NCBI GenBank assembly: GCA_031422435.1 | Contig: JANPLU010000108.1 | Coordinates: 1-58,065, forward strand | Source of the DNA: Acaryochloridaceae cyanobacterium VAR_48_metabat_390 | GTDB taxonomy: Bacteria > Cyanobacteriota > Cyanobacteriia > Thermosynechococcales > Thermosynechococcaceae | DNA: 58,065 nucleotides | Direction: 5' to 3' | In this document: positions 12,097-31,128 of the stretch, piece after piece | Layout: every line of letters begins with the position of its first letter | Numbering within the stretch: position 1 is the stretch's first letter | Program-made: the position numbers and the translations under genes | Notes under the pieces: model-generated | Seen by the model: the letters and a program-made list of their open reading frames with translations, nothing else | Told to the model about the DNA's origin: nothing | Databases searched by the model: none

Positions 12097-13095
12097 ATGG
12101 ATTTATTACGCTCACTGCCCCTAGGGCTTTACCTCGAACAGCCGATTACCTGGCTTCATCGGCTAGATCCTAGGGTAAAGCTGGCGTGGCTAATGACTTT
12201 TTTGGTGACGCCACTGCTCTCGAATCTGACTTGGAGAATTGGGATTGTGGTGCTGCTCGTCTTACTGACGGGTTTAGCTCAAATTCCGTGGCGCGCCTTA
12301 AAACAGCAGATGGGCTGGATTTTTGTATTTTGCCTGCTGATTTTAGCAATTACGGCAGTCATGCCCGATGGTTTAGCTGTTCGCTATCAGCCGCGACTAC
12401 CCGCTAATGAGCTTCAGCCTCAGGTAGTCTCTGTCACTGCTGCTGAAGCCCGACGGGAATGGTACGACCCGTTAGGGTGGTTTAAGGCATCCCCGTCACC
12501 GTCTTCTCAAGCGCCTTCTTTAAATCCTTCTTCTCGTTTTGAGATGAAGCCCTATCGCTATGTTCTGCTGCAAAAGGGTCCTGTTACCGTTACCCGTCAA
12601 TCACTGCGTTTAGGGGTACAGCTTTGCACAGGGTACTTCACGCTGATCTATAGCACCACACTGTTTTTGCTCACAACCGCCCCTGAAGAAATTACGGCGG
12701 CGCTAGATACCGTATTTCAGCCGCTCAAGCGCTGGAGAATTCCGGTCGTTGAAGTGAGCTTGACCTTGACCCTATCGCTGCGGTTTATTCCCCTCGTGCT
12801 AGAGGAAGTGCAAAATTTGGTGCGCTCGGTGCAGACCCGAGCCATTAATTGGAAGAAGCTGGGCGTTCGGGGTGCGGCACAGCTCTGGCTCACGATCGCC
12901 GATCGCCTGCTCGAAAACCTATTTTTACGTGCGGAACAGATTGCAGGTGCAATGGCGTCTCGCGGGTTCACGAGTCCTAACACCCATCAGGTCAAGTGGC
13001 AGCAGTTAAGAATGCGATCGCGCGATTGGGTTGCCCTCAGCTTTCTGTCTGTAGTGCTAGGATTGCGTGTGCTTGCGGCCTTTGAGCTGTTTTGA
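12097..13095 (+). CDS. ECF transporter transmembrane T component (EcfT/CbiQ, Ycf92-like)
   Basis: LHRLDPRVKL, TTAPEEI, LSLRFIPLVLEE, AMASRGF. Confidence 0.88.
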   Translation: MDLLRSLPLGLYLEQPITWLHRLDPRVKLAWLMTFLVTPLLSNLTWRIGIVVLLVLLTGLAQIPWRALKQQMGWIFVFCLLILAITAVMPDGLAVRYQPRLPANELQPQVVSVTAAEARREWYDPLGWFKASPSPSSQAPSLNPSSRFEMKPYRYVLLQKGPVTVTRQSLRLGVQLCTGYFTLIYSTTLFLLTTAPEEITAALDTVFQPLKRWRIPVVEVSLTLTLSLRFIPLVLEEVQNLVRSVQTRAINWKKLGVRGAAQLWLTIADRLLENLFLRAEQIAGAMASRGFTSPNTHQVKWQQLRMRSRDWVALSFLSVVLGLRVLAAFELF

Positions 13096-13131
13096 CCTTC
13101 TACCACTGCCCCCGCTTATCAACCCTAGCTT

Positions 13132-14574
13132 ATGAATGTTTTGCGGCCTTGGTATTGGCGACCGCTCCCCCTCGACCATAAAAGTGGCACTGAAGTATTT
13201 GCAGCGCTCTTTCAACATCAGCCCATTGCCGTTTTGTTAGAGAGTCCCTCTGATACCGCCGCAACCCTGTCGCCATTGCCCCACAGTCGCTACTCCATTT
13301 GTGCGGGTGCGCCACGCCAGCAAGGGGGATGCGATCGCATTTGGACTCCTGCCCTAGGCCAAATTTTTGACTGCTTAACCGCAAGGCTTCAAGAAGGCGA
13401 ATTTCTGCCGCCCAATGACACATCGCCCAGTCACTTGCCCTTTACGGGCGGCTGGCTGGGGTGGCTGGGGTACGATCTGGCCTGGGAAATTGAAACCCTC
13501 CCCTGGCTGCGCTCAGATCCACTACCCTTTCCCGTTGCCTTTTGGTACGAACCCGAAACCTTTGCGGTTTTAGACCATCACCAGCAGCAGCTATGGCTAG
13601 CAGCCTCTGACCCTCAAGACTTAGACAATCTTGAAACACAGATCCATCAGCCCATAGTGTCGCTGTCTGTAGATGAAGCGATCCAGCAGTACCGCAATCT
13701 ATCAATGGATCTCTGCCAGACCACCTTTGAAGAAATGGTCAAAACCGCCAAACAGCATATTCAGGCGGGGAGCGTATTTCAAACCAACCTTTCACTGCGC
13801 TATCGTGCCGAGGCGTATCTCCACCCATGGCGGCTCTACAAAGCCCTTCAGCAAATCAACCCGTCCCCCTTTGCCAGCTACTGGCAAACCCCTTGGGGCT
13901 GTGTGGTGAGTGGCTCTCCAGAGCGGCTGGTTGAGTATCGTCACGGACAGGCGCAAACCCGTCCCATCGCAGGGACTCGACCCAGGGGTGATAACGCTGT
14001 CGCAGAGCAAGACTATCTTCAGGCACTGCTCAATAGCCCTAAAGAACGCGCAGAACACATCATGCTGGTAGACCTAGAGCGCAACGATTTGGGTCGTGTG
14101 TGCGAGTGGGGCAGCGTGCAGGTTGATGAGCTTTTGAGCGTGGAATTCTATAGCCACGTCATGCATCTAGTCAGCAATGTCAAAGGCAACCTCCATTCCA
14201 ACGCAACACCCATTGACCTCATTAAGGCCGTATTTCCAGGGGGAACCATTACAGGTTGCCCCAAGGTGCGCTGCATGGAAATTATTGAAACCCTGGAGCC
14301 AGTTCGCCGCAGCCTATTTTACGGCTCCTGCGGCTACCTAGATGTTCGCGGTCATCTAGACCTCAATATTTTGATTCGCACACTGCTGATTGCGGCAGCA
14401 GATCGCCAGCCTGCGCCTTGGCATCAAACGGCCTTACAGCATACGCATCTCTGGGGACAGGTGGGCGCAGGCATTGTGGCAGACAGCGACCCGACGCAAG
14501 AATGGCTAGAATCCTTACAAAAAGCAAAAGCGCAGTGGAAAGCCCTTAAAAATATCGCTGAGGATTCCTGCTAA
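13132..14574 (+). CDS. Chorismate-binding enzyme (aminodeoxychorismate synthase I / anthranilate synthase I-like)
   Basis: SPERL, TRPIAGTRPRG, KERAEHIMLVDLERNDLGRV, FPGGTITGCPKVRCMEII, GAGIVADS. Confidence 0.88.
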   Translation: MNVLRPWYWRPLPLDHKSGTEVFAALFQHQPIAVLLESPSDTAATLSPLPHSRYSICAGAPRQQGGCDRIWTPALGQIFDCLTARLQEGEFLPPNDTSPSHLPFTGGWLGWLGYDLAWEIETLPWLRSDPLPFPVAFWYEPETFAVLDHHQQQLWLAASDPQDLDNLETQIHQPIVSLSVDEAIQQYRNLSMDLCQTTFEEMVKTAKQHIQAGSVFQTNLSLRYRAEAYLHPWRLYKALQQINPSPFASYWQTPWGCVVSGSPERLVEYRHGQAQTRPIAGTRPRGDNAVAEQDYLQALLNSPKERAEHIMLVDLERNDLGRVCEWGSVQVDELLSVEFYSHVMHLVSNVKGNLHSNATPIDLIKAVFPGGTITGCPKVRCMEIIETLEPVRRSLFYGSCGYLDVRGHLDLNILIRTLLIAAADRQPAPWHQTALQHTHLWGQVGAGIVADSDPTQEWLESLQKAKAQWKALKNIAEDSC

Positions 14575-14643
14575 TCTCTATTAGAGACCTTCGTTAGACC
14601 CTTCTGATCAATCCGCCATGCTTGGGCGTACCTATCCCCATCA

Positions 14644-14910
14644 ATGACCACCGAAACCTACCTTAACCATCCAACCTTTGGGCTACTGTTTAGCATCTGT
14701 GCTTTGGATAAAGATCGGTCGCTGTTTACCACGCTTTATGCTCAGCGTCTATTTTTTCTGGTCGTTCAGAATAGTGAGGGGACAAAGTTTGACCCGATCA
14801 CGCGAAATGAGGCGCGTATTTTTGCCGAAACGTCCCTTAGAATGCTGCGACGTGAAGGTTCTAAGGCAGATTACGATAGACTACAGGCAATTCATCGTCA
14901 AACATTTTAG
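14644..14910 (+). CDS. pipX: PII-interacting protein X
   Basis: ETYLNHPTFGLL..LFTTLYAQRLFFLV signature; directly upstream of a YggS-family gene. Confidence 0.95.
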   Translation: MTTETYLNHPTFGLLFSICALDKDRSLFTTLYAQRLFFLVVQNSEGTKFDPITRNEARIFAETSLRMLRREGSKADYDRLQAIHRQTF

Positions 14911-14935
14911 TTAAATATCTTGGTCAAACCCTTTA

Positions 14936-15640
14936 ATGGTTGATTGCTCTAATTTCCCAACCGTGGCTGAGCGCATTCTTCATTTGCGCCGTGATGTACC
15001 ACCCTTCGTTCGGATTATTGCTGTCACCAAGACAGTCCCTATTCATTTGATGCGAGAAGCTTACGCCGCAGGGATCAGGGACTTTGGCGAGAGTCGCCTG
15101 CAAGAAGCTATTCCGAAGCAGCAGGCATTGGCAGATCTGTCTGATATTACTTGGCATTTGATTGGTCATCTGCAAAGCAATAAAGCGAAGCAGGCGCTCC
15201 AGCATTTTCAGTGGATTCACTCTGTGGACAGCTTGGCGATCGCCCAGCGCCTAAACCAGCTCTCCGTAGATTTGGGTCTTGCGCCCAAACTCTGCCTCCA
15301 GGTCAAACTCAATCCTGACCCCAATAAGTTTGGCTGGACGACTCAAGCGCTCATAGAGCAACTTTCGCTTCTGCACGCCCTTGAGCATCTGAGCATTCAG
15401 GGGTTAATGACCATCCTGCCGCTCAACCTTTTCCCCCCTCAGCAGCTCACCATCTTTCAAGAGGTCAAAGATCTCGCCCAACGCCTGAGTCAACACCCTC
15501 AAACCCCACTGCCGATTACCGAACTTTCCATGGGCATGTCTTCCGACTATGCACTTGCTATCCAAGCTGGAGCTACCATGATTCGTCCTGGAAGAATTTT
15601 ATTTGGTGAAAGAGAACGTATCTCTTCGCTCTACATCTGA
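14936..15640 (+). CDS. pipY: PLP-binding YggS/PROSC-family protein
   Basis: IAVTKT, DFGESRLQE, WHLIGHLQSNK, LSMGMSSDY, GATMIRPG; pipX-pipY synteny. Confidence 0.93.
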   Translation: MVDCSNFPTVAERILHLRRDVPPFVRIIAVTKTVPIHLMREAYAAGIRDFGESRLQEAIPKQQALADLSDITWHLIGHLQSNKAKQALQHFQWIHSVDSLAIAQRLNQLSVDLGLAPKLCLQVKLNPDPNKFGWTTQALIEQLSLLHALEHLSIQGLMTILPLNLFPPQQLTIFQEVKDLAQRLSQHPQTPLPITELSMGMSSDYALAIQAGATMIRPGRILFGERERISSLYI

Positions 15641-16013
15641 TCGGCTTTTGGCTCAAGCCCCTCAACCAGGTTTCTGCATACCGCGTCAGATAGACGAAGT
15701 TATGCCTTTTTGCCGAGTGACTTTATAAAATTTTTATGGAAACGTGTCAGATTGCTCTGTACATATTAGATGCATGATGTATAATCTGGTTTTGAATTTA
15801 CTCTATGGATACAAATACTGGAGCTAGTCTCTTAATTTGTCTTTGTAGCGCCCTATACCAATAGTGGTTGGGGATCAAAAATAATCCTTTGAATCTCTAA
15901 AATCTGATCGATCAGGAGATTTGCAGGTCATTTTTTGGTTTAATACGTTGATACAAATAGATTTTATAGAAAAGGTTATTTGACCTTGAGCCGTTTACGA
16001 TGGAGCCTGCGCT

Positions 16014-16625
16014 GTGAGTAGTTTGTTTGGAAAATTTAGAGAATTTGTCGGCATTCCTGCCTCAGACGAGTACGACGAATATGGTGAGGATGATCTAGAC
16101 CTAGCCAGTGAAGATTATTCTCATGGCTACGAGCCAACCCTAGAGCAGTCTACCGAAGAAGACCGAAAGCAGACACGGATGCAGTCTGTAGAGCCTGTTC
16201 GCTCATCTATCCCTCCTGCAGGCAGCGGCGGCAGCAATGTGGTCGGCATGCCTGGAGCAGGCCGCTATTGGGGTAGCAATGCCGCAGAGGTTCTTGTGCT
16301 AGAGCCTCGTGCGTTTGAAGAAATGCCCCAAGTGATTCAGGCGCTGAGAGATCGCAAGTCAGTTGTGCTCAATCTGTCTTTGATGGAGCCTGCTCAGGCT
16401 CAGCGCTCGGTTGATTTTGTGGCAGGTGCAACCTTCACTATTGATGGACATCAAGAACGCGTAGGCGAAAACATCTTTTTGTTTACGCCAAGCTGTGTGG
16501 AGGTGCGTACCCAATCTGGGGTAATTCATGAAGCGCCTCAGACCATCGCTACCCCCGCCGCGACGTCTTCTCGCATTGCGACAACGTCTTGGCAAATGGA
16601 TCCGCTGAGCGCGATCGCCCAGTAG
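16014..16625 (+). CDS. sepF: Cell division protein SepF
   Basis: [56 protein letters not shown]. Confidence 0.95.
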
Positions 16626-16650
16626 TCATTCCGTTACTCAATCCATCGGT

Positions 16651-16699
16651 TGAAATAGATCTTGCTGTGCGAAAATTTTCTACAGCAAGATCTATTTCA
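16651..16699. terminator. Perfect 18-bp hairpin between sepF and proC (terminator or mRNA-stabilising stem-loop)
   Basis: TGAAATAGATCTTGCTGT (16651-16668), 13-nt loop, ACAGCAAGATCTATTTCA (16682-16699). Confidence 0.6.
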
Positions 16700-16721
16700 T
16701 ATCTGGCCTCATTTATAAACT

Positions 16722-17555
16722 ATGACAGTGTCTCAGTCCGCTCCAGGTAAGACTAAGCAGCTTGGCATTATTGGTGGAGGGGTAATGGCTGAGGCAATTT
16801 TGTCTGGTCTATTAGCCCAAAATGCCTATGCTGCCGCTGACCTCATCGTGAGTGATGTGACCGCGCATCGCCTCGATCATTTGGCGACAACCTACGGCAT
16901 CGCCACCACGCTGAGCAACCTTGAAGTGGCGCAGGCTGCCGCTACCGTGGTCTTAGCTGTTAAACCCCAAACCTTTTCTAGTATTGCGGCGGAATTTGCA
17001 GGTGCAGCAATTTCCTGCGATCTCTGGCTCTCTATTTTGGCAGGGGTGCCGCTCTCAAAGTTAGAGGCGGCTTTAGGTGAGCACGCCATCATCCGCGTCA
17101 TGCCCAATACCCCAGCGCTGGTGGGGGCAGGCATTACGGCGCTTGCTCCAGGCAAATCTGCCCAGCCTTATCACGTTGCGACGGCAGAAAAAATTTTTGC
17201 AGCCGTTGGTGAAGTGTTAACTGTCTCTGAAACTTGGATGGATGCCATTACGGGGCTTTCTGGGTCAGGGCCGGCCTTTGTGGCGATCGCCATTGAAGCC
17301 CTAACAGACGGCGGCGTGGCAGCGGGTCTACCTCGTCCTATTGCGGCAAAGCTGGCGGTGCAAACGGTACGAGGCACCACGGAGCTGATGATTCAGAAAG
17401 ACCTGCATCCAGCGCTTTTAAAAGACCAAGTGACCAGTCCTGGCGGCACCACTATTGCAGGGGTCGCTAGTCTCGAAGCCTCTGGGTTTCGCTCTGCATT
17501 GATTGGGGCAGTGCAGGCGGCCTATCGGCGATCGCAAGAGCTAGGCCGCTCCTAA
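16722..17555 (+). CDS. proC: Pyrroline-5-carboxylate reductase
   Basis: GIIGGGVMAEA, LAVKPQ, RVMPNTP, GLSGSGPAF, VTSPGGTT. Confidence 0.96.
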   Translation: MTVSQSAPGKTKQLGIIGGGVMAEAILSGLLAQNAYAAADLIVSDVTAHRLDHLATTYGIATTLSNLEVAQAAATVVLAVKPQTFSSIAAEFAGAAISCDLWLSILAGVPLSKLEAALGEHAIIRVMPNTPALVGAGITALAPGKSAQPYHVATAEKIFAAVGEVLTVSETWMDAITGLSGSGPAFVAIAIEALTDGGVAAGLPRPIAAKLAVQTVRGTTELMIQKDLHPALLKDQVTSPGGTTIAGVASLEASGFRSALIGAVQAAYRRSQELGRS

Positions 17556-17567
17556 CGCGAGCGATTT

Positions 17568-19265
17568 TCAGTCAAACTGAATCTCTTGCTCCACCAAAAG
17601 TTCTGCTAGAAACTGTCGATCTTCGTTGATGTGGGGAAACTTGAGTTGAGAGTCAGACATTCCCCGATCCACCTGACGTTTTCGGACCGCGCCAAAACTT
17701 CCTGGAGCTAGGATTCTGAGCCTAGGCGGAGGGACTTGATCCGTCCGAACCGTTCCATAGGGGTTATTGGCCTCCTTCAAGCATTCGTCAAATCGGCGCA
17801 AAAAGGCTTCGGGGTGGGTCAGCACTTGCCCTTTTGCTAACTCGATATTCACCCAATAATAGGCTGGGAATTCATGCTCTGAAAGCGTCACGCAAAAGTC
17901 ATCCAGGTGAATCTGAAACTCTTGCTGTAGAATCTTCATCACCTGGGTAACGTGAGCTTCCGTCGTTTTTTCAGTTGTGGCGGAAAGCAGCCCCCCTTGG
18001 CGATAGCGAAACACGATCATTGGCGCTTGCCCATAAAACCCGACGACTTCAACGACATCGCCAATGTCATAGCGATAAAAGCCGCTATAGCTGGTGACTA
18101 AAATCCGATAGTGATCGCCCACGCGCACTTCTGTCGGCAGCAGCGTTTTCGGATGCTCAAGATCCCACTGATCTTCGCTGACAAACTCATAAAACCCGCT
18201 TTCGATCGCCAAAATACTGCCGTCAGTATTAAAGTCTGGAAAAATTCCAAAAGTGGCTTCTGCCGATCCATAAACCCCGCCGAAGATGAGAGGTCGCTCG
18301 AAAAATTGCGGAAAGTTTTCAAAATAAAAGTCCGAGGTGCCGCCCCGTGCGGTTGCAATATAGGACAGTGCGGGCCAAGCAAGATGAGGGGTCAACTGCC
18401 CATGGTGTCGCAGCAAATTGTCCAGTTCATCAGCACGACTCGGATCCGCTCGCCACTGACGCTCCAGACGCGGGCGCAAATCAGGCTCTATCGCAAGCCA
18501 GTTTGCAATCGTGCCCTGGCGTAAATCCTGAATTAAATTTTCAGCGTACTGCCCTAAATAACTGCAAGTTCGCAAAATCAACATTGGAAAATTTGCCGTC
18601 ATACAGCTCAACTGACGCTCCCGTAAGGCAAACAGCAAGCAGACATAGTGGCGCGCCAAACTATCTCCAATCAATAAGGCATCGTAGGGCTGGGCAAAGG
18701 TTTGCGCATAGAAAAACTTACCCATTCGCAAGCTTCCCACGGTCACTGGACCATAGGAGATCCCCCCTGACGTTTTGCCCTGAAGTCTAGCGGAATTCGT
18801 GGTCAAAATCTTGCCAAACTGAAGGGGTTGACCGGCTGCATCCCAATTTTTTTGAGATTGCAGCGCTTCTAGGCAAAAGCCAATTGCAGCAAAATTAGCC
18901 TGGCGCAGCGATCGTTGAAATCGCCAGGTCACAGGCACCAACTTTTGCTTGCCTGTAGAGCCACTGGTCAAGCTAATGTAGACCACTGGGTCAGGATTTA
19001 AAACGTTGGCTTCCCCTTGAGCAATTCTTTCCGTATAAGGTTCATAAAAGCTGTAGGGGTAAACTGGAACTTGCGAACGGAACTGATCCAGGGTGCGAAT
19101 CGTACCCAATCGAAAGTGTTTGCCAAGTTCTGTGTTTTGATGCTGGGCTAATAGCCGCTGCAAAAATGCCTCCTGTACATCCATGACTCGGCATGTTTTA
19201 TCTATAAACTGCCGTTTGATATGGGTGGTATAGAGTTTGAGAACTGGCTGAAAAACAGAGTTCAT
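17568..19265 (-). CDS. GH3-family acyl-adenylate/acyl-acid amido synthetase
   Basis: FRSQVPVYPYSFYEPY, SLTSGSTGKQK (motif I), YGSAEA (motif II), GFYRYDIGDVV (motif III), SQLKFPH. Probable start is ATG 19265; the ORF extends to 19292. Confidence 0.88.
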   Translation of the reverse strand: MNSVFQPVLKLYTTHIKRQFIDKTCRVMDVQEAFLQRLLAQHQNTELGKHFRLGTIRTLDQFRSQVPVYPYSFYEPYTERIAQGEANVLNPDPVVYISLTSGSTGKQKLVPVTWRFQRSLRQANFAAIGFCLEALQSQKNWDAAGQPLQFGKILTTNSARLQGKTSGGISYGPVTVGSLRMGKFFYAQTFAQPYDALLIGDSLARHYVCLLFALRERQLSCMTANFPMLILRTCSYLGQYAENLIQDLRQGTIANWLAIEPDLRPRLERQWRADPSRADELDNLLRHHGQLTPHLAWPALSYIATARGGTSDFYFENFPQFFERPLIFGGVYGSAEATFGIFPDFNTDGSILAIESGFYEFVSEDQWDLEHPKTLLPTEVRVGDHYRILVTSYSGFYRYDIGDVVEVVGFYGQAPMIVFRYRQGGLLSATTEKTTEAHVTQVMKILQQEFQIHLDDFCVTLSEHEFPAYYWVNIELAKGQVLTHPEAFLRRFDECLKEANNPYGTVRTDQVPPPRLRILAPGSFGAVRKRQVDRGMSDSQLKFPHINEDRQFLAELLVEQEIQFD

Positions 19266-19477
19266 AGACGGGGTCAACTTCAAAACGATCAATCAATCGG
19301 GCATTCTGCTGGCATTTCTACAACAGATCGCCATAAGCAGGAAAGAGACTTCCAGAATAAACGTATTTAGTCCCTCTAGAGCAAATGCCGTCACCTGCTT
19401 AGCGTTTCATGCATTTAAAAGATATAGTCTTAAAATTTAGTGTTTAGTGAAATTTGAAAACTTCGCCTTAGTACAGA

Positions 19478-21586
19478 GTGAATGCATTGCTAGCGAATAC
19501 TTTGCCAAGAACAACCGTTGTAGACGTATTAAGGCACAGATCGAACGGTCAGTCGAACCTGACGGGCTATACATTTTTGGTGGATGGTGAAACACAAACC
19601 GTTAGTCTGACCTATCAAGCCCTTGATCTTCAGGCTCGAACGATTGCAGCGCATCTGCAATCCCTCAACGGTTATGGGTCTCGTGCATTACTGTTGTACC
19701 CTCCAGGGTTAGAGTTTATTGCTGCATTCTTGGGCTGTCTCTATGCTGGCGTTACAGCAGTCCCCGCTTCTCCCCAACAGAACCAAAATCGGCAACGATT
19801 ACAGGCCATTGTGGCAGATGCAGATGCGACGTTTGCACTCACAACAGCTGCCTTACTGACGCAAAACAAAGCCCAGTTTAACGACTCTCAAGCATTTCGA
19901 CTGCTTCACTGGATGACAACCGATAACCTGAAAGATGCTGCGTCCGCATGGAACGCGCCGACCTTAAAGGATGACACCATTGCTCTCCTGCAATACACAT
20001 CAGGCTCCACAGGGGCGCCCAAAGGGGTGATGGTGACGCATGACAACCTCATCCATAACGCCACCATGATTCAGGATTGTTTCCAGGATAGCGCCGACAG
20101 CATCGGCGTTTCTTGGCTACCTCCACATCATGACATGGGCTTAATTGGCGGCATTCTCCAGCCACTCTCCATTGGTCGCCCCATGATTTTGATGTCGCCC
20201 ACTGCATTTTTGCGAAAGCCCGTGCGTTGGCTCCAGGCTATTTCTCGATACCGCGCCACAACGAGCGGTGGACCTAACTTTGCCTATGACCTTTGCGTCA
20301 ACAGAATCACCCCCGCAGACTGCGAAACCCTCGATCTCAGCAGTTGGCAAATTGCCTTCAATGGCGCTGAACCCATTCGGCCTCAGACCCTAACGTCTTT
20401 TTCTAAGGCCTTTGAACCCTATGGATTTCATAGCGCTGCGTTTTACCCCTGCTACGGCATGGCAGAAGCAACCTTAATGGTCACGGGCTGCACTCGGATG
20501 AACCCGCCTGTGGTGTGTACCGTTGATGCGATCGCCCTAAAAGACAAACAGGCAATCCCCGTCGAGCATTCACTACAAACGGCTCAAACGATTGTGAGCT
20601 GTGGTCAGGCTCGGCGAGAGAAAAAGGTCATGATTGTTGACCCAAACTCTTTAGAGCCGTGCGAGGACTCTACAGTGGGTGAGATTTGGGTCTCCAGTTT
20701 GAGTGTGGCTCGGGGCTACTGGAACCAGCCGCAAGAAACGGCACGAATTTTTAATGCGTACCTTCATCATTCCCATGAGGGGCCTTTTCTTCGTACAGGT
20801 GATTTAGGGTTTATTCGGGCGGGGGAGCTATTTGTCACGGGTCGGCTTAAGGAACTCATTATTATTCGGGGTCGCAACCACTATCCCCACGATATTGAAT
20901 GGACGGTGCAGTCTAGCCACGCTGCCCTGCGCTCCGGTGGCGGTGCGGCTTTTTCCATTGAGGCCAGTGGCGTTGAGCGCCTTGTAATTATACAAGAGGT
21001 AGAGCGCAGCGCTGTGCGGCAGCTCGCCGCCGCAGAAATCTTTGCTGTGCTGCGCAGAGCCATATCAGAAAATCATCACCTTCAGGTGTACGCGATCGCC
21101 CTCCTAAAGCCCGGCAGCATCCCCAAAACATCCAGTGGCAAAATTCAGCGGACAGAGTGCCGCACTCGTTTTATGGAAGGTAGCTTGGCAACACTAGAGA
21201 CTTGGAGCGAGCGTTCTGTTGACTTTCAGCAGGTGCAGGTCGCAGCAGAAGCAATGCTGAAAACCTTGACTAGTGCGCGACCCTCTCCTTTGTTCGGGAG
21301 CGAAGAATCTAGCAGCAGAACCATCCCAAGTTTGACTACTCCTCCTCTGGCTCCGACCGAAGAAGATATTCAGACTTGGATGACAGCTAATCTTGCCCTT
21401 TATCTTAAGATTCCGCTAGACGACATCGACCTCTCAGAGCCTTTCTCTCATTACGGATTAGACTCTTCGAGTGCGGTCAGTCTTGCGGCTGAACTCTCTA
21501 ACTGGTTGGGGCGTGAACTAGAGCCAACCTTATTTTGGGAATATCCCAGTATTGAAGCTTTAGCCCATCATCTCGGCAGTGCCTAG
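19478..21586 (+). CDS. Fatty acyl-AMP ligase fused to an ACP (FAAL-ACP loading protein)
   Basis: LQYTSGSTGAPKGV, SWLPPHHDMGLIG, YPCYGMAEAT followed by a FAAL-type insertion, RTGDLGF, IPKTSSGKIQR; C-terminal ACP YGLDSSSAVSL. Confidence 0.93.
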   Translation: MNALLANTLPRTTVVDVLRHRSNGQSNLTGYTFLVDGETQTVSLTYQALDLQARTIAAHLQSLNGYGSRALLLYPPGLEFIAAFLGCLYAGVTAVPASPQQNQNRQRLQAIVADADATFALTTAALLTQNKAQFNDSQAFRLLHWMTTDNLKDAASAWNAPTLKDDTIALLQYTSGSTGAPKGVMVTHDNLIHNATMIQDCFQDSADSIGVSWLPPHHDMGLIGGILQPLSIGRPMILMSPTAFLRKPVRWLQAISRYRATTSGGPNFAYDLCVNRITPADCETLDLSSWQIAFNGAEPIRPQTLTSFSKAFEPYGFHSAAFYPCYGMAEATLMVTGCTRMNPPVVCTVDAIALKDKQAIPVEHSLQTAQTIVSCGQARREKKVMIVDPNSLEPCEDSTVGEIWVSSLSVARGYWNQPQETARIFNAYLHHSHEGPFLRTGDLGFIRAGELFVTGRLKELIIIRGRNHYPHDIEWTVQSSHAALRSGGGAAFSIEASGVERLVIIQEVERSAVRQLAAAEIFAVLRRAISENHHLQVYAIALLKPGSIPKTSSGKIQRTECRTRFMEGSLATLETWSERSVDFQQVQVAAEAMLKTLTSARPSPLFGSEESSSRTIPSLTTPPLAPTEEDIQTWMTANLALYLKIPLDDIDLSEPFSHYGLDSSSAVSLAAELSNWLGRELEPTLFWEYPSIEALAHHLGSA

Positions 21587-21859
21587 CCTCATCAAGCCGA
21601 GATGAAATCCATTAGGGCTACATGTCTTTGTTTCAGGATCTAATCGTTATAATGACTTAAAACTTTGCCGAAAGAAGCCTAACGCAACCGTTAGTGCCGA
21701 TTCGGCAGATTGCCTCATCTGAGCTTGAGGGCATTTTGGAATGTTTGACCAGCGCTTTATTTTTTATAGAAAATGCTGAACGAATAAGACTGAAGATATA
21801 AATTCGCCGTCTACTGTAAATGTCTAAGTCTTAAATTTCTAAGGTCTGGTCGGAGCAAA

Positions 21860-24800
21860 ATGCATAAAGAACCTATTGCTGTTATTGGAATTGGCTGCCG
21901 TTTACCAGGAGCCAATAACCCACAGGAATTTTGGAAACTGCTGCACGACAATGTGGATGCCATTACAGAAGTGCCATCGTCCCGATGGGATTTGAATACT
22001 TTTTACGACCCCGACCCGACTCAGCCTCACAAAATGAGTACCCGCTGGGGTGGCTTTTTAGAAAATATTGATCAGTTTGACCCCACTTTTTTTGGCATTA
22101 CGCCCCGTGAAGCCAACACCATCGATCCGCAGCAGCGGCTGATTTTAGAAGTGGCTTGGGAAGCGCTTGAAGATGCAGGGCAGGTGCCATCACGCTTATC
22201 TGGGTCACAAACGGGCGTTTTTATGGGCATCTCTAGCCACGATTATTCTTCGTTAGTCACTACAAATGACCCTTACGCCCTCACAGGAAATGTTAACTGC
22301 ATTGCGGCAAACCGAATTTCTTACGTTCTGAATTTCAGGGGCCCTAGCTTAGCGATAGATACGGCCTGTTCCTCATCCTTAGTAGCGGTGCATTTAGCCT
22401 GTCAAAGCCTTTGGGATGGCGAGAGTACGCTGGCTTTAGCGGGTGGGGTACAGGTCATTTTATCGGCAGATGTCGCTGTGAGCTTTAGCAAGGCGGGGTT
22501 GATGGCACCAGATGGTCGCTGCAAAACCTTTGACGCGAAGGCCAATGGCTATGTCCGTAGCGAAGGGGCGGGGGTTGTGCTGCTCAAGCCGCTTTCTCAG
22601 GCCCAAAAAGATGGCGACCCTATTTACTCGGTCATTTTAGGCACTGCGGTGAATCAAGACGGACGCAGTAATGGCTTATCTGCACCCAATCCAGAGGCGC
22701 AAGAGGCAGTTGTGCGCGAGGCGTATCAACGCGCTGGGGTATCGCCAGGACAGGTGCAGTATGTAGAGACTCACGGTACCGGAACAAAACTGGGCGACCC
22801 GATGGAGCTGAAAGCGCTGGGTGCAGTTTTAAAGGAGGGACGCGCTGAGGGCGATCGCTGCGTAGTTGGCTCAGTTAAGGCAAATCTGGGGCATTCCGAA
22901 ACGGCAGCAGGCATTACGGGGTTTATTAAAGTTGCGTTGGCGCTTAAGCATCAGCAGATTCCGGCAAGTCTGCACTTTCAAGAGCCGAACCCCTATATTG
23001 ATTTTGATGCCCTACAGCTCAAGGTTCAGCAAACTCTGGAACCTTGGCCCTATCGAGAGGGAGCTGCCGTTGCGGGGATCAACTCCTTTGGGTTTGGGGG
23101 CACCAATGCCCATGTAGTGCTTCAGGAAGCGCCGCCAAAGCTTCCTAAGCTTGATTTCTCTAAATTTCAAAGACCTTGGCATCTGCTGACGCTCTCGGCA
23201 AAAAGTGAGGCGGCTTTACGCGCGTTGAGTGGGCGGTACCAAACGCTGCTAGCGCAAAACCCGATGCTGTCTTTGGCGGATGTTTGCTATAGCGCGAATG
23301 GGGGGCGATCGCAGTTCAAACATCGACTAACCGCCATTGGCTCTTCGAGTGCCGAGGTGCGAACGCAGCTTGCGGCATTTGCGGCAGGAGAGACAGATAT
23401 CACAGGTGTTTTAGAAGGACAGGTGACGGGCAAAAAAGCGCCTCGAATCGCCTTTTTATTTACAGGCCAAGGTTCGCAGTATGTCGGCATGGGTAGGGCG
23501 CTGTATGAATCTCAGCCCACCTTTCGGAAAGTATTAGATCGCTGTGATGAGATTTTGCGGCCTGAGCTAAAGGTGTCGCTACTGTCGGTTCTGTACCCCG
23601 AAACGGAAGGGCAAAGCCCCATTGACGAAACGGCCTATACGCAGCCTGCCCTGTTTGCCCTAGAGTATGCCCTCGCCCAGCTTTGGATGTCGTGGGGCAT
23701 TACCCCTGCTGTAGTGATGGGGCACAGCGTTGGGGAATATGTGGCGGCCTGTATTGCAGGCGTATTTAGCCTAGAGGATGGCCTAAGGCTGATTGCGGCA
23801 CGGGGTCGTTTGATGCAGGCACTGCCCCAGAATGGCGCAATGGTGTCTGTGTTGGCGGATGAAGCCAAGGTTACAGCAGCGGTGCAGCGTTATGGGGATT
23901 CGGTGGCAATCGCCGCCATTAACGGCCCTCAAAGCATCGTTATCTCTGGGGCGCAGGTCGCCATTGCCGCCATTATGACGGAACTAGAGGCAGAGGGCAT
24001 CAAAACTAAGCCGCTCCAGGTTTCCCATGCCTTTCACTCGGCACTGATGGAGCCAATGCTGGCAGAATTTGCCCAAGTCGCTTCAGAAATTGCCTATGCT
24101 CGTCCGCGCATCAGCCTTATTTCTAATCTCACGGGCGACTTGATTGGCGCTGAAATTGCAACGCCAGAATACTGGTGCCTACATATTCGTCAGCCCGTCA
24201 AGTTTGCCGCCAGCATGGATACCCTTGCGCGCCAAGAGTATCGCGTGTTTCTAGAAATTGGACCAAAGCCGATTCTGCTGGGGATGGGACGTGCTTGTCT
24301 GGGCGATGAAGAGAATCTATGGCTCCCTAGCCTGCGACCTGGTCAACTCGACTGGCGGCAAATCCTCAACAGCTTGGGTTCGCTTTATCTGCATAATGTA
24401 GCCGTAGACTGGGCTGGCTTTGAGCAAGACTACGTTCGCCAATGGGTGAATTTGCCGACCTACCCTTTCCAGCGGCAGCGGTACTGGTGGTCTGAAGCAG
24501 AGCTGAAGGCGGGAGTCAAGAACGGCGCATCACTCCCTACAGGCACAGAACAAAAGACACTGCATCCGCTGCTGGGCTTTAAGCTGTCCTTGGCAGGGAC
24601 TTCAGAGCTACGGTATCAGTCTCAGCTCAGTGCGCGATCGCCCTCATACCTACAAGATCACTGCGTTTTACAGCAGCCCGTTTTACCCGCCGCCGCCTAT
24701 TTAGAAATGGCTGCTGCCGCCGCAATCCAGGTGTTTAACGAGAGTTCTTGGCAAATTGAGGCGGTGGTTATTGAGCAGCCGCTTTTACTCAATGCACAAG

Positions 24801-27800
24801 ACAGCGCTACGCTCCAACTCCAGCTCATCCCTGAAGGGCTATCGAACTATGGGTTCCAAATTTTTAGCCTGCCTCAGGACGCTGATTCTACGCGGCTCTC
24901 TTCCGTGCGCCATGCTACAGGTAAATTGGTATTTACGCCTCCGTCCGCCCTGCTTGAGAGTGCAGCGTTAGATCAGATCCAGGCCGATTGTGCTGAAGCA
25001 ATTGAGATTTCGACCTATTACCGCCAGCTCCAAGATCGAGGACTTTACTATGGCTCCAGTTTTCAGGGCGTACAGCAGCTCTGGAAAGGTGAAAATCAGA
25101 CTTTAGGACGGATTCAGCTTCCTAACGCGCAGCGCACAGAAGCAGAGAACTATACTCTTCATCCTGCGCTGCTAGATGCCTGTTTTCAGGTTTTGGGCGC
25201 GGCAGATTTAGGCAGCAAGGAAACGTTTTTGCCTGTGGCGCTCGGACGGCTACAGGTTTATAGCCGTGTGGCTCAAGATACCCTGTGGTGTCACGCTCGG
25301 CTGCAATCTTTTGATGCAAAACAGGTCTGTGCCGATCTGACCTTGTTTGACGCAGCGGGTGAGAAGGTGGCTGAGATTGAAGGGTTTACCCTTCGAGCCG
25401 TGGGTCGCCGAATGCTTCAGCGGTTGCTACAGCAGGAGGTCGATCGCAGTAAGTGGCTGTATGAGATCGCTTGGCAGTCTAAGCCCCACGTCGCTTTGCC
25501 TGTGGTGGAGGAACAACAGGAGGGGAAGACGCTTGGTGCAAAACCATCACCTAAAACCTGGCTCATTTTTTCAGAGACCCAAGGCGTGGGTGCTGCGTTA
25601 AGCCAGCAATTGCAGACACAGGGAGACTCCTGCATTTTAGTATCCGTAGCTCAGCACTTTGAGCGGGTTGATTCTCATACCTACCGCATAGATCCAGCCA
25701 ACCCTGAGCATTTTCAACAATTGCTACAGGGCATTGTCAGTGCCCAGCCGTCATTGTTTGGCGTGGTTCACCTGTGGAGTTTGGCTGAGCCATCCGAGCT
25801 TCCACTCTCTGGCGTAGATCTCACCGCAGCTCAAATTCAAGGCTGTGGCAGTGCGCTGTATTTGGTGCAGGCGTTAGACCAAGCCAGTTTTACCGAATCT
25901 CCGCGTCTATGGCTTGTCACTCAAGGCGCTCAGTCCGTTGGAGCCACCGCCGCGCCGCAGTTTCAGCAGTCTGCCCTTTGGGGCTTAGGCCGCACGATCG
26001 CCCTGGAGTATCCCGATCTGCAATGCGTTCGCCTAGATCTCGACCCAGACCACGATAATGTCTCCTGTCTCGTAGCGGATCTCCAGCTTCCAGACGGGGA
26101 AGACCAAATTGCCTATCGCCAAGGCGATCGCCATGTAGCGCGGCTCATCCGTCATGAACCTGAGCAAAGTGCCTTACTTCAGCGCCCTGACAGCAATGCC
26201 GCGTTCCAGCTCAAAATTTCTAGCTACGGCATTCTCGAAAATCTCATGCTGGCTCCCGTCAGCCGTCGATCGCCTGGGCACACAGAAGTAGAAATTCAGG
26301 TCGATGCCGCAGGACTTAACTTCCGCGATGTTTTGAATGCCCTAGGAATGCTTCAGGCTTATCTCGCACAAATGGGTCTATCCAATGCCGCTGATGTGCC
26401 CTTTGGTGGGGAATGTGCGGGTCGGGTTGTAGCAATGGGCGAAGGGGTTGAGGGGCTTCAGACTGGGGATGAGGTGATTGCCGCCAATGCGATTGGCAGT
26501 ATGGCGAACTTTGTGACTGTGCCAGCCCAGTGCGTCATCAGCAAGCCAGAACACCTGAGCATGACAGAAGCTGCAACTCTTTCCACGGCGTTTTTGACGG
26601 CTTACTACGGTCTACACCATTTGGCAAATATTAAAGAGGGCGATCGCGTCCTCATCCATGCCGCAGCGGGGGGCGTAGGCCAGGCAGCAGTGCAGTTGGC
26701 GCAACGGGCAGGCGCTCAGGTTTTTGCCACAGCAAGCCCTGCTAAGTGGGCCTTTTTGCACGATATGGGCGTTGAGCATACCTTCAACTCTCGCACCCTA
26801 GACTTTGCAGCAGAAATTTTGGCGCTCACCGAGGGGCAGGGCGTTGATATTGTCCTCAATAGCCTCAATGGGGACTTTATCTCTAAAAATTTAGAGGTTC
26901 TAGCCCCTAAGGGTCGATTCATTGAAATTGGCAAACTGGGCATTTGGGAGGAATCCGAAATCCACGCTCAGCGCGCAGACGTTTCTTATTTCCCCTTTGA
27001 CTTATTAGAGGTATCGCTCCAAAATCCGACTTTGTTTACATCGATGCTGCGAGACTTGATGCAGATGTTTGAGCTGCGTCAGCTTCAGCCATTGCCCCAT
27101 CAAGTTTTCCCCATTGAAGAAGCCGTCAGCGCCTTCCGACACATGGCGCAGGCCAAACACAAAGGCAAAGTGGTGCTTTCTGTGGCAGACAGCTCTGCAA
27201 ATGCTGCTGAGATTGTTCGTGCAGACGGCACCTACCTCGTAACGGGCGGGATGGGAGCTTTAGGGCTTCAGGTTGCCCATTGGTTAGCCGACCAAGGCGC
27301 GAAAACCCTCGTTTTAACAGGTCGAAGCTCCCCTTCTGAGGCAGCGCAGCAAGACATTCAGCGGCTTGAGCAAAAGGGCGCTCAAGTCTGCCTAATCCAG
27401 GCTGATATTGCCCAACCCTCTGATGTACAGGAGATGTTTGCAACCATTGGGCAGTCTCTGCCGCCACTGCGGGGCATCATCCACGGGGCTGGAATTTTGG
27501 ATGACGGCGTGCTTCAGGGACAAACTTGGGCGCGTTTTGCCAAGGTGATGGCACCCAAGGTGGCAGGAGCTTGGAATTTACATACCCAAAGTCTAGACCT
27601 TCCCCTCGACTTTTTTGTCTGTTTTTCGTCAGTTGCGGCATTGTTAGGTTCCCCTGGGCAGGGCAACTATGCGGCAGCGAATGCCTTTATGGATGGGTTA
27701 GCCCACTACCGCAGAAGCCTCGGGAAACCAGCCCTAAGCCTCAACTGGGGACCTTGGGGTGGCGTGGGCATGGCGGCAGAACTGGGAGATCGCAACATAG

Positions 27801-29827
27801 CACGTCTAGCCCTCAGCGGCATCACGCCTCTAGACCCAGAGCTAGCCTTAGAAACAATGGGCGAACTTCTGACCCAGAATGCCTCCCAGAAATCGTCTCA
27901 GATTGGCGTAGTGCAGATTGAATGGTCTAAATTCCTGGAGCAGTTGTCTAACGGGGTAGTTCCGCCCTTTTTGGAGCAGGTCGCAGCCGTCGCTGAAGCT
28001 GGAACCCAGGCTTATTCGGCTTTTCGGCTCCAGCTTGAGGCTGCACCCCCTGAAGAGCGGCGGGGTTTGTTAACGCAGCATGTGCAAACTCAAATCGCCA
28101 AGGTCATGGGAATCAGTTCCCCTGAAGAGATTGAGCTAGACCGAAGCTTTACGGACTTGGGGATGGATTCTCTCATGGGCATGGAAATGAAGAGTCGGCT
28201 TCAGGCCAGCCTGAACTGCTCTTTCCCCATTACGCTGGCGATGGACTACCCCACGGTCGGTTCTCTCATTAACTACATTGAGCAAGAGGTGCTATCGGCT
28301 GGTTCACCTCCCGTCAACGCTGGTTCAGCGCAGTCTACTTCTGCCCCTCAAGCGTTAGCGGCACCCTCTGCGGTGGAGTCTAGCGCTGCGGCTCAAATGC
28401 TAAACCCGACGGAAGCGTCTCTTAAAGCATCGGGGAATGGTCATCAGCCCTCAATCGCTGGCGCAAATAGATCGGCACAAACCCAAGCGATTCCACCGGA
28501 GTTTTATCAGTTTGAACTGTCGCCAGAGTATCTAAACCTCAAGGAATATCTAGAGCAGGGCAAGAAAATTGGGAATCCCTTTTTTACGGTGCATGACGGC
28601 ATTGCAAAAGACACCACGTCCATTGAAGGACAAGATGTTGTTAATTTCTCCAGCTATAACTACTTAGGGCTGTCAGGCGATCCAGCGGTTTCTGAAGCCT
28701 CAAAAGCTGCCATTGATCGCTATGGCACTTCGGTTTCAGCCAGCCGAGTGGTGTCAGGGGAGCGCTCCATTCACCAAGATTTAGAACGGGCGATCGCCGA
28801 TTTCCTCGGCACCGAAGACTGCATTGTCTACATTGGCGGACACACCACCAACGTCAGCACCATTGGGCATCTGTTCGGTAAAAATGACCTGATTGTGTGT
28901 GACGCCCTTAGCCACAACAGCGTTCAGATTGGCTGTAAGCTTTCGGGTGCAACCACCATTTCATTTGTGCATAATGACATGCGATCGCTAGAGAGCATCC
29001 TTCAGTCGCATCGCCATGAATTTGAAAAGGTACTGATTGCTGTTGAGGGCGTCTACAGCGCCGACGGCGATTTAGCGCCACTGCCAGAGATTATTGAACT
29101 CAAGAAACGCTTTAAGACCTTTTTACTGGTTGATGAAGCCCATTCAATTGGGGCAGTGGGGCATGAGGGGCGTGGCGTGGGAGAACACTTTGGGGTTGCC
29201 CGTACCGATGTTGACTTGTGGATGGGCACCTTAAGCAAATCCTTTGCAAGCTGCGGGGGCTACATTGGAGCCTCCACCGTAATGGTGGAGTACCTCAAAT
29301 ACACCTCCCCTGGATTTGTCTACAGCGTGGGGATGACTCCCTCCAATGCAGCATCCGCGTTAGTGGCGCTTCAAAGGCTCCAAGCAGAGCCGGATCGGGT
29401 CACGCGACTGCAAGAGCGCACCTTACTGTTTTTGTCTTTGGCAAAAGAACAGGGGTTCGATACGGGCACCAGTCACGACTCGCCTGTGGTGCCCATTATT
29501 ATTGGCGACCCCTATAAAGCAGTGCAGCTTTCTCAGGCGATGCTGCTGCGCGGCGTTAATGCTCAGCCGATGATTTATCCTTCTGTACCCTATGACGCGG
29601 CGCGTCTGCGGTTCTTTTTGAGCTGTGACCACACCGAGGCGCAAATTCGACAGACCATCACAATTCTGGCGGAGGAAATTGCAAAGATGGAGGGCATCAC
29701 AAAGAATAGCAACGACTGGCTGCATTATCTAATGCGATCGCAGTTTGTAGCGGATAAGGCCGCAGATCGACCTGAGCAGTCATCGCCAAAATCTTCGAGA
29801 GATTCTACTCTCCGTGAAGCGGGATAG
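21860..29827 (+). CDS. Type I PKS, KS-AT-DH-ER-KR-ACP fused to a PLP-dependent alpha-oxoamine synthase (BioF/SPT family)
   Basis: KS DTACSSS/HGTGT/NLGHSE; AT GHSVG + HAFHS (malonyl); [93 protein letters not shown]. Confidence 0.93.
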
Positions 29828-29892: not shown

Positions 29893-31128
29893 TTAGCGAC
29901 CCAACTTATTAGGGATATTGCCACAGCCCCCCGCAATAGTACCTCGGGTTTTAGAGCCGCCCCAAGCGCAGCAGTAGTAATGTTGCTCTTGCGAGAGGTT
30001 TTTGACCTGGCTCAAGTCTGCACCTTCAATCACGGCTCCTGTATAGGCTCCAGTGCTGTAGTTTGGCGCGTTAATGCGATCACGGGGGCTGGCAGTCTCC
30101 GCATCTCCATGAAACAAACAGGCGCGAGACAAATCGGCCTGTTTGAGGTTAGCCCCCAACAGCAGCGCCCGTGAGAGGTTCGCGCGGGTGAGGTCGCAGG
30201 CCGCCAAGCTAATGTTGGTTAGGTTTGCTTCGCTCAGTTCTGTAGAGCGTAGATCGCTATTGGACAGATCTGCCCCTGCCAACATATTGGTGAGGTCAAT
30301 GACTCTTACCCCGTATTCAATATCTTCTTCATAGCCCCCCAACCCATCAAAAATAGGGCGACCCAAACGGCGATCGCGTTTTAAAGGCGTGAGCAACTTC
30401 GCACTTGACAAAAACCGGATCACCTTGGCCTTCCCCTCGCCATCTAACCCCGTCAAAATCGCCGCCGTGCGCCCTTCGGCGATCGCCCGTTCGGGAGGCC
30501 AGTCTTCTAAAAGACCTTCTTCATCTAGCACTAGGTCAGAAATACCTTGAAAATAAGCGTCAATAGTCTGCTGCTGAGTGATGCGATTTTGTTGACTGGT
30601 CAGGTCTTTAGAAATAACGTACTGTCGCCACGCCACATAGAGCGCCAAAAAAGCGACCGAGATTTGTCCAATCGCCCCAAAAACTTCGCCAAGCGCACTC
30701 AGTGCCTCCCAGTTAATGCCGCGATTGCCGGGGGCAAGCTGATCGGTTGCCCCACTAAACCGAAGCAGCCCAATGATGCTAAATAGCGTAATTGCCCCCG
30801 CCGCAATAATCATTTGCAGGGGACGGGGAATCCATTCATTAACGGCGGCGACCAGGACAGGCCAAAGCACGCGAATGGCCAAGGCGATCGCCACCAAAGC
30901 CGCCGGAATGCCGAGCCAAGGCAAATGGAGAAATAGCGCAACACCCAGTACGGCTGTGGCTGCGGCTGCAATTGCTAGTAGTGACCATACTTCAGGGCCT
31001 GAGCCGTTGAGAGAAGTCAACGTTTTAGAGCGATACAAGGGCGCTAGGACTAAGGAAGCGTCTTCCTTAAGACCGGAGCTAAATTCATTTTCTGGGTTAG
31101 AAGAATTGGGCGGAGGCGGATTATTCAT
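29893..31128 (-). CDS. Membrane-anchored pentapeptide-repeat protein
   Basis: N-terminal TM helices; A(D/N)Lxx repeats (ADLSNSDLRSTELSEANLTNISLAACDLTRANLSRA). Confidence 0.88.
   Translation of the reverse strand: MNNPPPPNSSNPENEFSSGLKEDASLVLAPLYRSKTLTSLNGSGPEVWSLLAIAAAATAVLGVALFLHLPWLGIPAALVAIALAIRVLWPVLVAAVNEWIPRPLQMIIAAGAITLFSIIGLLRFSGATDQLAPGNRGINWEALSALGEVFGAIGQISVAFLALYVAWRQYVISKDLTSQQNRITQQQTIDAYFQGISDLVLDEEGLLEDWPPERAIAEGRTAAILTGLDGEGKAKVIRFLSSAKLLTPLKRDRRLGRPIFDGLGGYEEDIEYGVRVIDLTNMLAGADLSNSDLRSTELSEANLTNISLAACDLTRANLSRALLLGANLKQADLSRACLFHGDAETASPRDRINAPNYSTGAYTGAVIEGADLSQVKNLSQEQHYYCCAWGGSKTRGTIAGGCGNIPNKLGR

Follow-up and report, generated by a model that had tools for sequence, protein, structure and literature searches.

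Gene content and domain architecture of the locus

Contig JANPLU010000108.1 of Acaryochloridaceae cyanobacterium VAR_48_metabat_390 (GCA_031422435.1, here G000) carries a three-gene locus, two genes of which most likely serve the synthesis of a sphinganine-type lipid backbone. Within the window, i.e. the whole stretch of 58,065 nucleotides that was analysed, three open reading frames (ORFs), none of them interrupted, encode a GH3 acyl-acid amido synthetase, a fatty acyl-AMP ligase fused to an acyl carrier protein (FAAL-ACP), and a polyketide synthase (PKS) ending in an alpha-oxoamine synthase (AOS) domain (Table 1). The ORFs, Pfam matches, and catalytic motifs bear out the original prediction that a GH3 gene lies divergently to genes for a FAAL-ACP and a ketosynthase (KS)-acyltransferase (AT)-dehydratase (DH)-enoylreductase (ER)-ketoreductase (KR)-ACP-AOS protein, and all three are real and intact. 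The evidence throughout is comparative genomics (domains, motifs, homologies, and distributions), from which we infer every chemical step.

Catalytic motifs are present in every domain checked of the three proteins. The GH3 protein contains the N, M, and C domains of its family (Pfam E = 6e-75, 5e-24, and 3e-19) with all three nucleotide-binding motifs, and GH3 enzymes are its best PDB matches (E = 2e-37). Its translation more likely starts at the ATG at 19265, as the resulting protein has the length of the database protein P0001. The second protein combines an AMP-binding domain (E = 7e-67) with a PP-binding domain that retains the carrier serine (S663). FAAL models and structures top all of its matches, the best in PDB being 7r7e (E = 3e-186; title: polyketide synthase), which we take to be the FAAL of an olefin synthase. 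The PKS domains occur in the Pfam order KS, AT, DH, ER, KR, ACP, and Aminotran_1_2 (E = 1e-98 to 7e-15). With the catalytic residues C170/H305/H345 in the KS, S623 in the AT, and the AT motif HAFH, an established malonyl-type motif, the protein is a monomodular fully reducing type I PKS. A gene of the phosphopantetheinyl transferase family, missed by a regular-expression scan, was found in the genome by a family search. As to the chain length of FAAL substrates, no residue rule is given in the available part of PMC11730487.

The GC content of all three genes, overall and at third codon positions (GC3), is close to the values of the genome and its housekeeping genes. Promoter-like sites in the region between the GH3 and FAAL-ACP genes occur at chance level (4 found, 4.0 expected). 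The locus had also been described as flanked by unrelated genes, which is correct here (proC and a gene for a pentapeptide-repeat protein) but not in relatives: in three of them, a reductase gene occupies the position of the pentapeptide gene behind the PKS, which means that the pathway extends beyond the three genes.

Table 1. Features of the locus and of two candidate acylation genes elsewhere in the genome (window positions unless a contig is named).
Feature	Position	Strand	Evidence or remark
proC (flank)	16722..17555	+	TIGR00112 above cut-off
Segment replaced relative to closest genus-mates (other GH3 paralog)	17548..19341	.	DNA identity, tree
GH3 acyl-acid amido synthetase	17568..19265, frame to TTG at 19292	-	Pfam, PDB, motifs; 565 aa
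Divergent intergenic region common to GH3 and FAAL-ACP	19266..19477	.	Sequence
FAAL-ACP loading didomain	19478..21586	+	Pfam AMP-binding and PP-binding, PDB; 702 aa
Monomodular fully reducing PKS with C-terminal AOS	21860..29827	+	Pfam, NCBIfam, motifs; 2655 aa
KS domain	21869..23128	+	PF00109/PF02801
AT domain, malonyl-type motifs	23453..24367	+	PF00698; GHSVG, HAFH
DH domain	24563..25417	+	PF21089/PF14765; H934, D1106
ER domain	26279..27178	+	PF08240/PF00107/PF13602
KR domain	27227..27760	+	PF08659; Y1937
ACP of the PKS	28082..28279	+	PF00550; S2104
PLP-dependent AOS, SgaB/RkpG clade	28634..29659	+	Pfam, PDB, tree
Pentapeptide-repeat membrane protein (flank)	29893..31128	-	Pfam
FAAL2, standalone FAAL	C102:30690-32564		Context: two GT4, fatty-acid hydroxylase, MFS, ABC transporter
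GNAT, bCerS-like	C56:51590-52735		Homology to YghO and a Roseomonas protein

The oxoamine synthase and its clade

The C-terminal domain of the PKS matches the NCBIfam models for BioF and for serine palmitoyltransferase (SPT), in both cases below the cut-offs. Its best PDB match is an SPT (E = 8e-71), but the BioF models score similarly to those for SPT, and the PDB match alone thus does not decide the type of AOS. In a FastTree phylogeny of 35 chosen AOS domains, the window AOS forms one clade with SgaB-like and RkpG-like proteins (SH-like support 99), with BioF and the Caulobacter-type Spt apart. As a stand-in for PfSgaAB(C) of Pseudomonas fluorescens MYb115, we used a Pseudomonas plasmid locus (L277) with the layout of the PfSga cluster. 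Like the published cluster, L277 holds a PKS-AOS pair and, five locus tags on, a short-chain dehydrogenase/reductase (SDR), and its AOS is close to the printed PfSgaB sequence when compared by eye. The window AOS is 54% identical to this SgaB-like AOS and shares its clade and motifs, including the pyridoxal-phosphate (PLP) site residues (H2352/D2425/H2428/K2460). The KS is 46% identical to the SgaA-like and 44% to the RkpA-like KS. PfSgaB is a proven serine-specific SPT, and the PfSga cluster yields C24-C28 sphinganines (PMC12134224).

Judged by these homologies, the FAAL-ACP and PKS-AOS most likely form a fused, fatty-acid-primed variant of PfSgaABC and the first half of a sphingoid-base pathway. 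Both systems have a monomodular reducing type I PKS, an AOS of the same clade, a 3-ketodihydrosphingosine reductase (KDSR)-like reductase, and the same active-site motifs. In PfSgaABC, however, AOS and PKS are separate genes and a loading FAAL is lacking, whereas here the AOS is fused and a FAAL-ACP would prime the PKS. For this reason, we regard the locus as a variant working like the SgaAB-type pathway rather than as a plain member. Further differences are a reductase on another, more RkpH-like branch, glycosyltransferase family 4 (GT4) and FAAL2 genes instead of the capsule and lipoteichoic acid (LTA) synthase genes, and the cyanobacterial host; the genus table of PMC12134224 lists no cyanobacterial genus.

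The ligase-fed AOS also resembles the Caulobacter/Rhodobacteria ceramide pathway (AasR-AcpR-Spt, bCerS, CerR), where a dedicated ligase loads a dedicated ACP that feeds the AOS (PMC9386255, PMC11087976, available parts). That pathway has no PKS, and its Spt belongs to another clade (33% identity to the window AOS). A further argument for an SPT-like AOS comes from outside the cyanobacteria, where members of the clade occur as FAAL-ACP-AOS or PKS-AOS fusions with pathway genes nearby: of the 80 AOS loci kept from 123, 8 have a neighbouring bCerS homolog and 7 a CerR homolog. A single-sequence fold prediction of the AOS was uninformative (pLDDT 36).

A KDSR-like reductase that co-occurs with the tethered AOS

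The reductase that directly follows the PKS-AOS gene in G419, G414, and G411 is an SDR, which G000 encodes elsewhere (C113:21261-22085). Among PDB entries, it matches the 3-ketodihydrosphingosine reductase TSC10 best (E = 5e-32; next match 2e-25), and its top Atlas clusters are named 3-dehydrosphinganine reductase. We searched for the gene in hand-chosen sets of genomes and loci, in which absence denotes no match with that query in that assembly. Among 48 genomes of the order, 20 encode the SDR. All of these belong to the 22 that have a tethered AOS, of which the remaining two are fragmented assemblies; the 26 others gave no match. All 17 positives among 70 chosen genomes of the class have a carrier-tethered AOS (15 of this clade, two of another). 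A further 28 genomes were selected from the 80 loci because their AOS is linked to a PKS, although a stop or contig end interrupts this link in three of them; the gene is present in 27 of the 28, the miss being a 0.9-Mb partial genome. A KDSR-like reductase, as in the SgaAB-type pathway, is thus encoded in trans here and adjacently in three relatives. Its homology and near-perfect co-occurrence with the AOS suggest that it reduces 3-ketosphinganine to sphinganine. At C113, a Rieske oxygenase gene lies divergently to it.

The GH3 gene and a second lipid module

According to the original prediction, the GH3 enzyme would N-acylate the base made by the PKS. In this model, which we consider very unlikely, the neighbouring GH3 would have been recruited in this genus as an ATP-dependent N-acyltransferase that yields a ceramide-like lipid. 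The gene order speaks for a link: proC, GH3, FAAL-ACP, and PKS-AOS are kept in G413, G416, G418, and G419 and, with one gene inserted, in G414, and GH3 stands head to head with FAAL-ACP in all six PKS-AOS genus-mates (directly in G413, G415, G416, G418, and G419). So does the exact swap of the GH3 gene in G000. At the DNA level, the locus is 88-89% identical to those of G418, G413, and G416 up to position 17547 and 84-87% from 19342, with only patches of 68-70% in between. The GH3 protein is 53-54% identical to those of the genus-mates; in a quick tree, it groups with the GH3 that G420 encodes in its standalone-AOS cluster (SH-aLRT 99) and lies outside the proC-linked clade (100). Flank identity and tree together indicate that one GH3 paralog replaced the other in place and in the same orientation. 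Still, the conserved order within a single genus is one evolutionary event, and it is not strict: G426 (locus L130) has proC-GH3 and no tethered AOS or PKS, in G415 the PKS has shifted to a site apart from GH3 and FAAL-ACP, and GH3 and PKS are not neighbours in the sister genus G411.

Precedent for the chemistry comes from OlsH, a lyso-ornithine-lipid synthetase and bacterial GH3 that uses ATP and free fatty acids to form a fatty amide and has the same three nucleotide motifs (PMC12493201, available part). OlsH acylates ornithine, not a long-chain base, and has other neighbours, and the window GH3 reaches 93.6 bits against the cut-off of 620 of the OlsH model (NCBIfam NF052613). The GH3 enzymes in the literature consulted acylate amino acids, and a sphingoid base has no carboxylate. 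The window GH3 keeps the lysine aligned with Lys428 of AtGH3.12, which may contact the amino-acid substrate (PMC6073592, available part); as this residue is generally conserved, it points only weakly to an amino-acid acceptor as in OlsH. The genus-mate G419, which has no FAAL2 (see below), and a distant GH3 (27%) that overlaps a FAAL-KS-AT-KR gene in G028 (L062) also fit an acylating GH3, while two other acylating candidates are present in G000.

Co-occurrence of GH3 with the PKS in other genomes, set beforehand as the test of this role, largely fails to appear. GH3 was found in seven of the 28 other PKS-AOS genomes, in none of nine genomes of genus g157, which hold FAAL, ACP, AOS, and reductase, and beside the AOS in two of the 80 loci. 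These two are of this genus type and may duplicate genus-mates already counted. Of 401 genomes sampled evenly across the phylum, 23 besides G000 encode 30 close GH3 genes (44-63%) at 29 loci, all outside the order of the window; no FAAL or PKS lies near GH3 at any of these loci (up to ~9 kb on each side, several cut by contig ends). The neighbours are instead a fatty-acid hydroxylase (11 loci), an Mpo1-like protein (10), an amidohydrolase (10), and a major facilitator superfamily (MFS) transporter (9). A standalone AOS in divergent orientation, a GNAT, and a Rieske oxygenase each recur at six loci. A close GNAT is encoded in all 24 GH3-positive genomes of the sample and in only four others, one of which (G002) has a contig end where GH3 would sit. 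By its distribution, GH3 belongs to a GNAT/standalone-AOS lipid module and looks like a neighbour from a separate pathway, and its role as the N-acylating enzyme of the PKS base is not supported.

The two modules might nevertheless converge: after loss of its standalone AOS, G000 would pass the PKS-AOS product on to the second module for N-acylation by the bCerS-like GNAT, and GH3 would couple an amino acid to a carboxyl group from Rieske or other tailoring. We consider this unlikely, with the caveat that the estimate overlaps with that for the sphinganine-type backbone. The GNAT is 33% identical to Escherichia coli YghO (E = 9e-46, 97% coverage), the named ortholog of the Caulobacter acyl-CoA N-acyltransferase (PMC9386255, available part), and 34% to a protein of the Roseomonas spt-acp-aasR cluster (E = 1e-57). 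It is thereby a bCerS homolog at the thresholds in the available part of PMC11334938 (E ≤ 1e-30, ≥ 50% coverage), compared here with homologs named in other papers rather than with the queries of that study. GNAT, epimerase-type reductase, Rieske oxygenase, and hydroxylase are all intact in G000, and the Rieske gene adjoins the KDSR-like gene. Furthermore, a standalone AOS is present in 41 of 44 GH3-positive genomes, and the three without it (G000, G414, and G430) all hold PKS-AOS. G430, however, is a fragmented assembly (92%, 1030 contigs). G000 and G414, which are better assembled, are also the two with FAAL2, and the role assigned to GH3 is conjectural. None of ten GH3-free PKS-AOS genomes tested holds the GNAT, so the PKS route does not need it, and we rejected it as the general N-acylase of this route. 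A general displacement of the standalone AOS by PKS-AOS was likewise rejected, as most genus-mates and G158, G017, and G014 hold both; it fits only G000, G414, and the fragmented G430. The epimerase-type reductase was discarded as CerR because its match to the Roseomonas epimerase is too weak (E = 2e-8 over 89 aa); its homologs score best with HpnA/SdmB-like models, though below cut-off. The AOS proteins found in the assembly are BioF-like or fused only, with no canonical standalone Spt among them.

The second module is compact at L126 (G410:C138:17000-36900), and also at L032, L037, and L124. L126 contains genes for an amidohydrolase, an Mpo1-like protein, a fatty-acid hydroxylase, a B12 radical SAM protein, GH3, an MFS transporter, a Rieske oxygenase, a divergent standalone AOS, a bCerS-like GNAT, and an HpnA/SdmB-like reductase. 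Its AOS has unusual motifs (26-30% identity to other AOS) and may use another amino acid, and GH3 may amidate an acidic product.

Candidates for N-acylation

The best candidate for any N-acylation is FAAL2, a standalone FAAL encoded beside GT4 genes. Together with relatives from genomes with both AOS and reductase, it forms a clade of exclusively ACP-less proteins (SH-like support 97-99) that is separate from the loading FAALs. In the A8 region, 18 of 20 proteins of this clade have a tryptophan, mostly an arginine in loading FAALs; the exceptions are those of G000 and G414. All ten GH3-free and GNAT-free PKS-AOS genomes tested encode a FAAL2-clade member. Among 20 control FAALs, none of nine from AOS-negative genomes and none of five from AOS-positive, reductase-negative genomes fell into the clade, compared to three of six from AOS-positive genomes with, or likely with, the reductase. 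FAAL2 is not obligatory, as G419 shows. Within its GT4 cluster, this genome carries another FAAL-ACP together with a P450. In G411, such a pair is found ahead of the PKS, linking the GT4 cluster to the PKS. The usual role of FAALs is to load ACPs (PMC8460268, available part), and FAAL2 could instead load a second chain for another transferase. By analogy with Pseudomonas, where the PfSga products carry no N-acyl chain (PMC12134224), the base may also stay unacylated.

We tentatively entertain a further-reaching possibility, in which ceramides or glycosphingolipids are made by a wholly carrier-bound route (FAAL, PKS, fused SPT, and eukaryote-like KDSR) and the amide is closed by an ATP-dependent adenylating enzyme of the FAAL2 clade or, in this genus, by GH3. 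If true, adenylating amide closure would add a third class of ceramide synthase, of independent evolutionary origin, to the eukaryotic and GNAT-type bacterial enzymes, and the carrier-bound route would provide the first genetic basis for cyanobacterial sphingolipids.

Proposed pathway and nature of the product

Overall, we consider it likely that FAAL-ACP and PKS-AOS build a sphinganine-type backbone and that GH3 is not its N-acylase. FAALs adenylate free fatty acids and convert the resulting acyl-AMP to acyl-S-ACP. In the proposed pathway, the FAAL would thus adenylate a free fatty acid and load its own ACP, and the PKS would take over the acyl chain and add one or several fully reduced malonyl units. 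The fused AOS would then condense the ACP-bound chain with L-serine under loss of CO2 and release 3-ketosphinganine; serine is proposed because of clade membership and identical active-site motifs. After reduction to sphinganine by the KDSR-like SDR, the base would be decorated, probably by the C102 genes (FAAL2, two GT4, fatty-acid hydroxylase, MFS, and ABC transporter), giving a glyco- or ceramide-type lipid of the cell envelope by glycosylation, hydroxylation, and possibly N-acylation. GH3 would act in the second lipid module, and the proposed route does not require it. The predicted 3-ketosphinganine-like base from a fatty acid is supported by the position of the AOS in the PfSgaB clade and by the reductase that travels with it. 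The closest characterised PKS works iteratively, and the single C2 addition of the original prediction is therefore not established.

Several observations weigh against this interpretation. The amino acid chosen by the AOS cannot be safely read from motifs common to the whole clade. The reductase is missing from the PKS locus of G000 and is only 31% identical to that of the Pseudomonas stand-in, and 8 of 23 other genomes of the class with this AOS clade have no KDSR match, which implies that the clade also serves other products. GH3 is present somewhere in all 12 PKS-AOS genomes of the order, and the standalone AOS that usually accompanies it, as well as its MFS transporter, were not found in the G000 assembly. 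No FAAL2-clade protein is among the hits of G419, a one-contig genus-mate with PKS-AOS and reductase. Moreover, the genomes are related, so that counts overstate independence, and the trees are quick or FastTree phylogenies without bootstrap.

A non-sphingoid product, such as a 1-deoxy base or other aminoketone or amino alcohol from alanine or glycine, a short signal, a secreted metabolite, or a polysaccharide lipid anchor as proposed for rkp/wcb, is in our view unlikely. It draws on the PKS, AOS, and SDR order that G419, G414, and G411 share with the rkpA-rkpG-rkpH (Sinorhizobium)/wcbR-type systems, and on 48% (AOS), 41% (SDR), and 44% (KS) identity to the RkpG-, RkpH-, and RkpA-like proteins of a Sinorhizobium meliloti capsule locus (L218), to which we presumptively assign the rkp names by gene order. 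The rkp/wcb clusters are tied to capsular polysaccharide (PMC3908369, available part), other AOS of the clade have methyltransferases and exporters as neighbours but lack the reductase, and GT4, ArnT-like, PagL-like, and OlsC/LpxO-like neighbours point to the cell surface. In the rkp/wcbR-type systems, however, the AOS is separate, a FAAL is lacking, and the genes lie within capsule genes, whereas capsule export genes were not found in the window. In addition, the sole biochemically tested clade member that we found is serine-specific and the reductase is KDSR-like. A polysaccharide anchor could itself be sphinganine and is therefore only partly an alternative. For the sphinganine-type product, the ArnT-like, PagL-like, and OlsC/LpxO-like neighbours in other cyanobacteria suggest a location in the outer membrane.

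A study of 2022 (PMC8895605) found no sphingolipids in Nostoc punctiforme and states that neither a sphingolipid gene nor an enzyme of this kind had been reported or characterised in cyanobacteria, although two ceramides were reported from Scytonema and Moorea. In the open-licence literature, we found no prior description of the cyanobacterial system, although Spt-like genes of cyanobacteria may appear in the supplements to the Black Sea and bCerS papers. That the GH3/FAAL-ACP/PKS-AOS trio belongs to no characterised pathway therefore holds for the literature searched, but a sphinganine pathway of PKS, AOS, and reductase does exist outside the cyanobacteria (PMC12134224). The FAAL-ACP, PKS-AOS, KDSR, FAAL2, and GT4 genes are a concrete and testable gene set that recurs in dozens of cyanobacteria, among them, by record title, cultured strains (L142, L167, L186, and L219), of which L142 has a GH3 and L167 no GH3 match. 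The findings extend the PKS route to sphinganines, described in 2025 for Pseudomonas, to phototrophs missed by the survey of that study, and name candidates for an N-acylation chemistry not yet known.

Variation among related loci

The organization of PKS-AOS loci varies among cyanobacteria. In L107, L110, L113, L066, and L065, the PKS-AOS is primed by an adenylation-PKS protein instead of a FAAL-ACP and accompanied by an isopropylmalate-synthase-like (HMGL) and sometimes an isopropylmalate-dehydrogenase-like gene, which suggests a starter derived from a 2-oxo acid. A whole module of PKS-AOS, FAAL2, two glycosyltransferases of family GT39, a GT4, and a second PKS lies on plasmid p3 of Planktothrix agardhii (L219, NZ_LR882937.1), indicating that the module is mobile. 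Locus L082 (G298:C170) combines FAAL-ACP-AOS, reductase, and FAAL2 with inositol-phosphate synthase, Stealth, LicD, and GT4 genes and is a candidate inositol-phospho-sphingolipid cluster. The GT4 cluster of the genus-mates also contains a B12 radical SAM gene, at whose place in G419 and G415 FAAL2 stands in G000; this gene may be broken in G000, where it matches in two overlapping pieces without a full ORF called (C90:83131-84497).

GH3 genes occur in further contexts. They lie directly behind a PlsC-type acyltransferase gene in L049, L051, and L052 (8230-10847) and directly before an OlsC-like hydroxylase gene in L047, L048, L058, and L111, pairings that resemble an acyloxyacyl amino-lipid route. 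In L062 (G028:C23:260800-280700, 9131-17504), from a genome outside the class, the distant GH3 overlaps the start of a gene whose 2249-aa product is a FAAL-KS-AT-KR protein, with an ABC transporter next to it; this pairing of GH3 with a FAAL-PKS is independent and lacks an AOS. A GH3 (27%) on a Streptomyces plasmid (L220, NZ_CP027299.1, 7914-9584) is part of a PKS cluster with P450, aminotransferase, and ThrRS genes, in a layout that we take to recall the borrelidin cluster, so that PKS pathways can also employ GH3 proteins for other purposes. Certain GH3 homologs carry fused pentapeptide repeats at the C-terminus (L031:8766-11351; P0009-P0011), and an 800-aa pentapeptide-repeat protein, one copy of which has a weak beta-barrel match, recurs in the family beside GH3, FAAL-ACP, and the GT4 cluster (L093:2480-4930, L099:4413-6881, L105:1636-6634, L130:10192-12501). 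Phycobilisome genes are among the other genes of the window.

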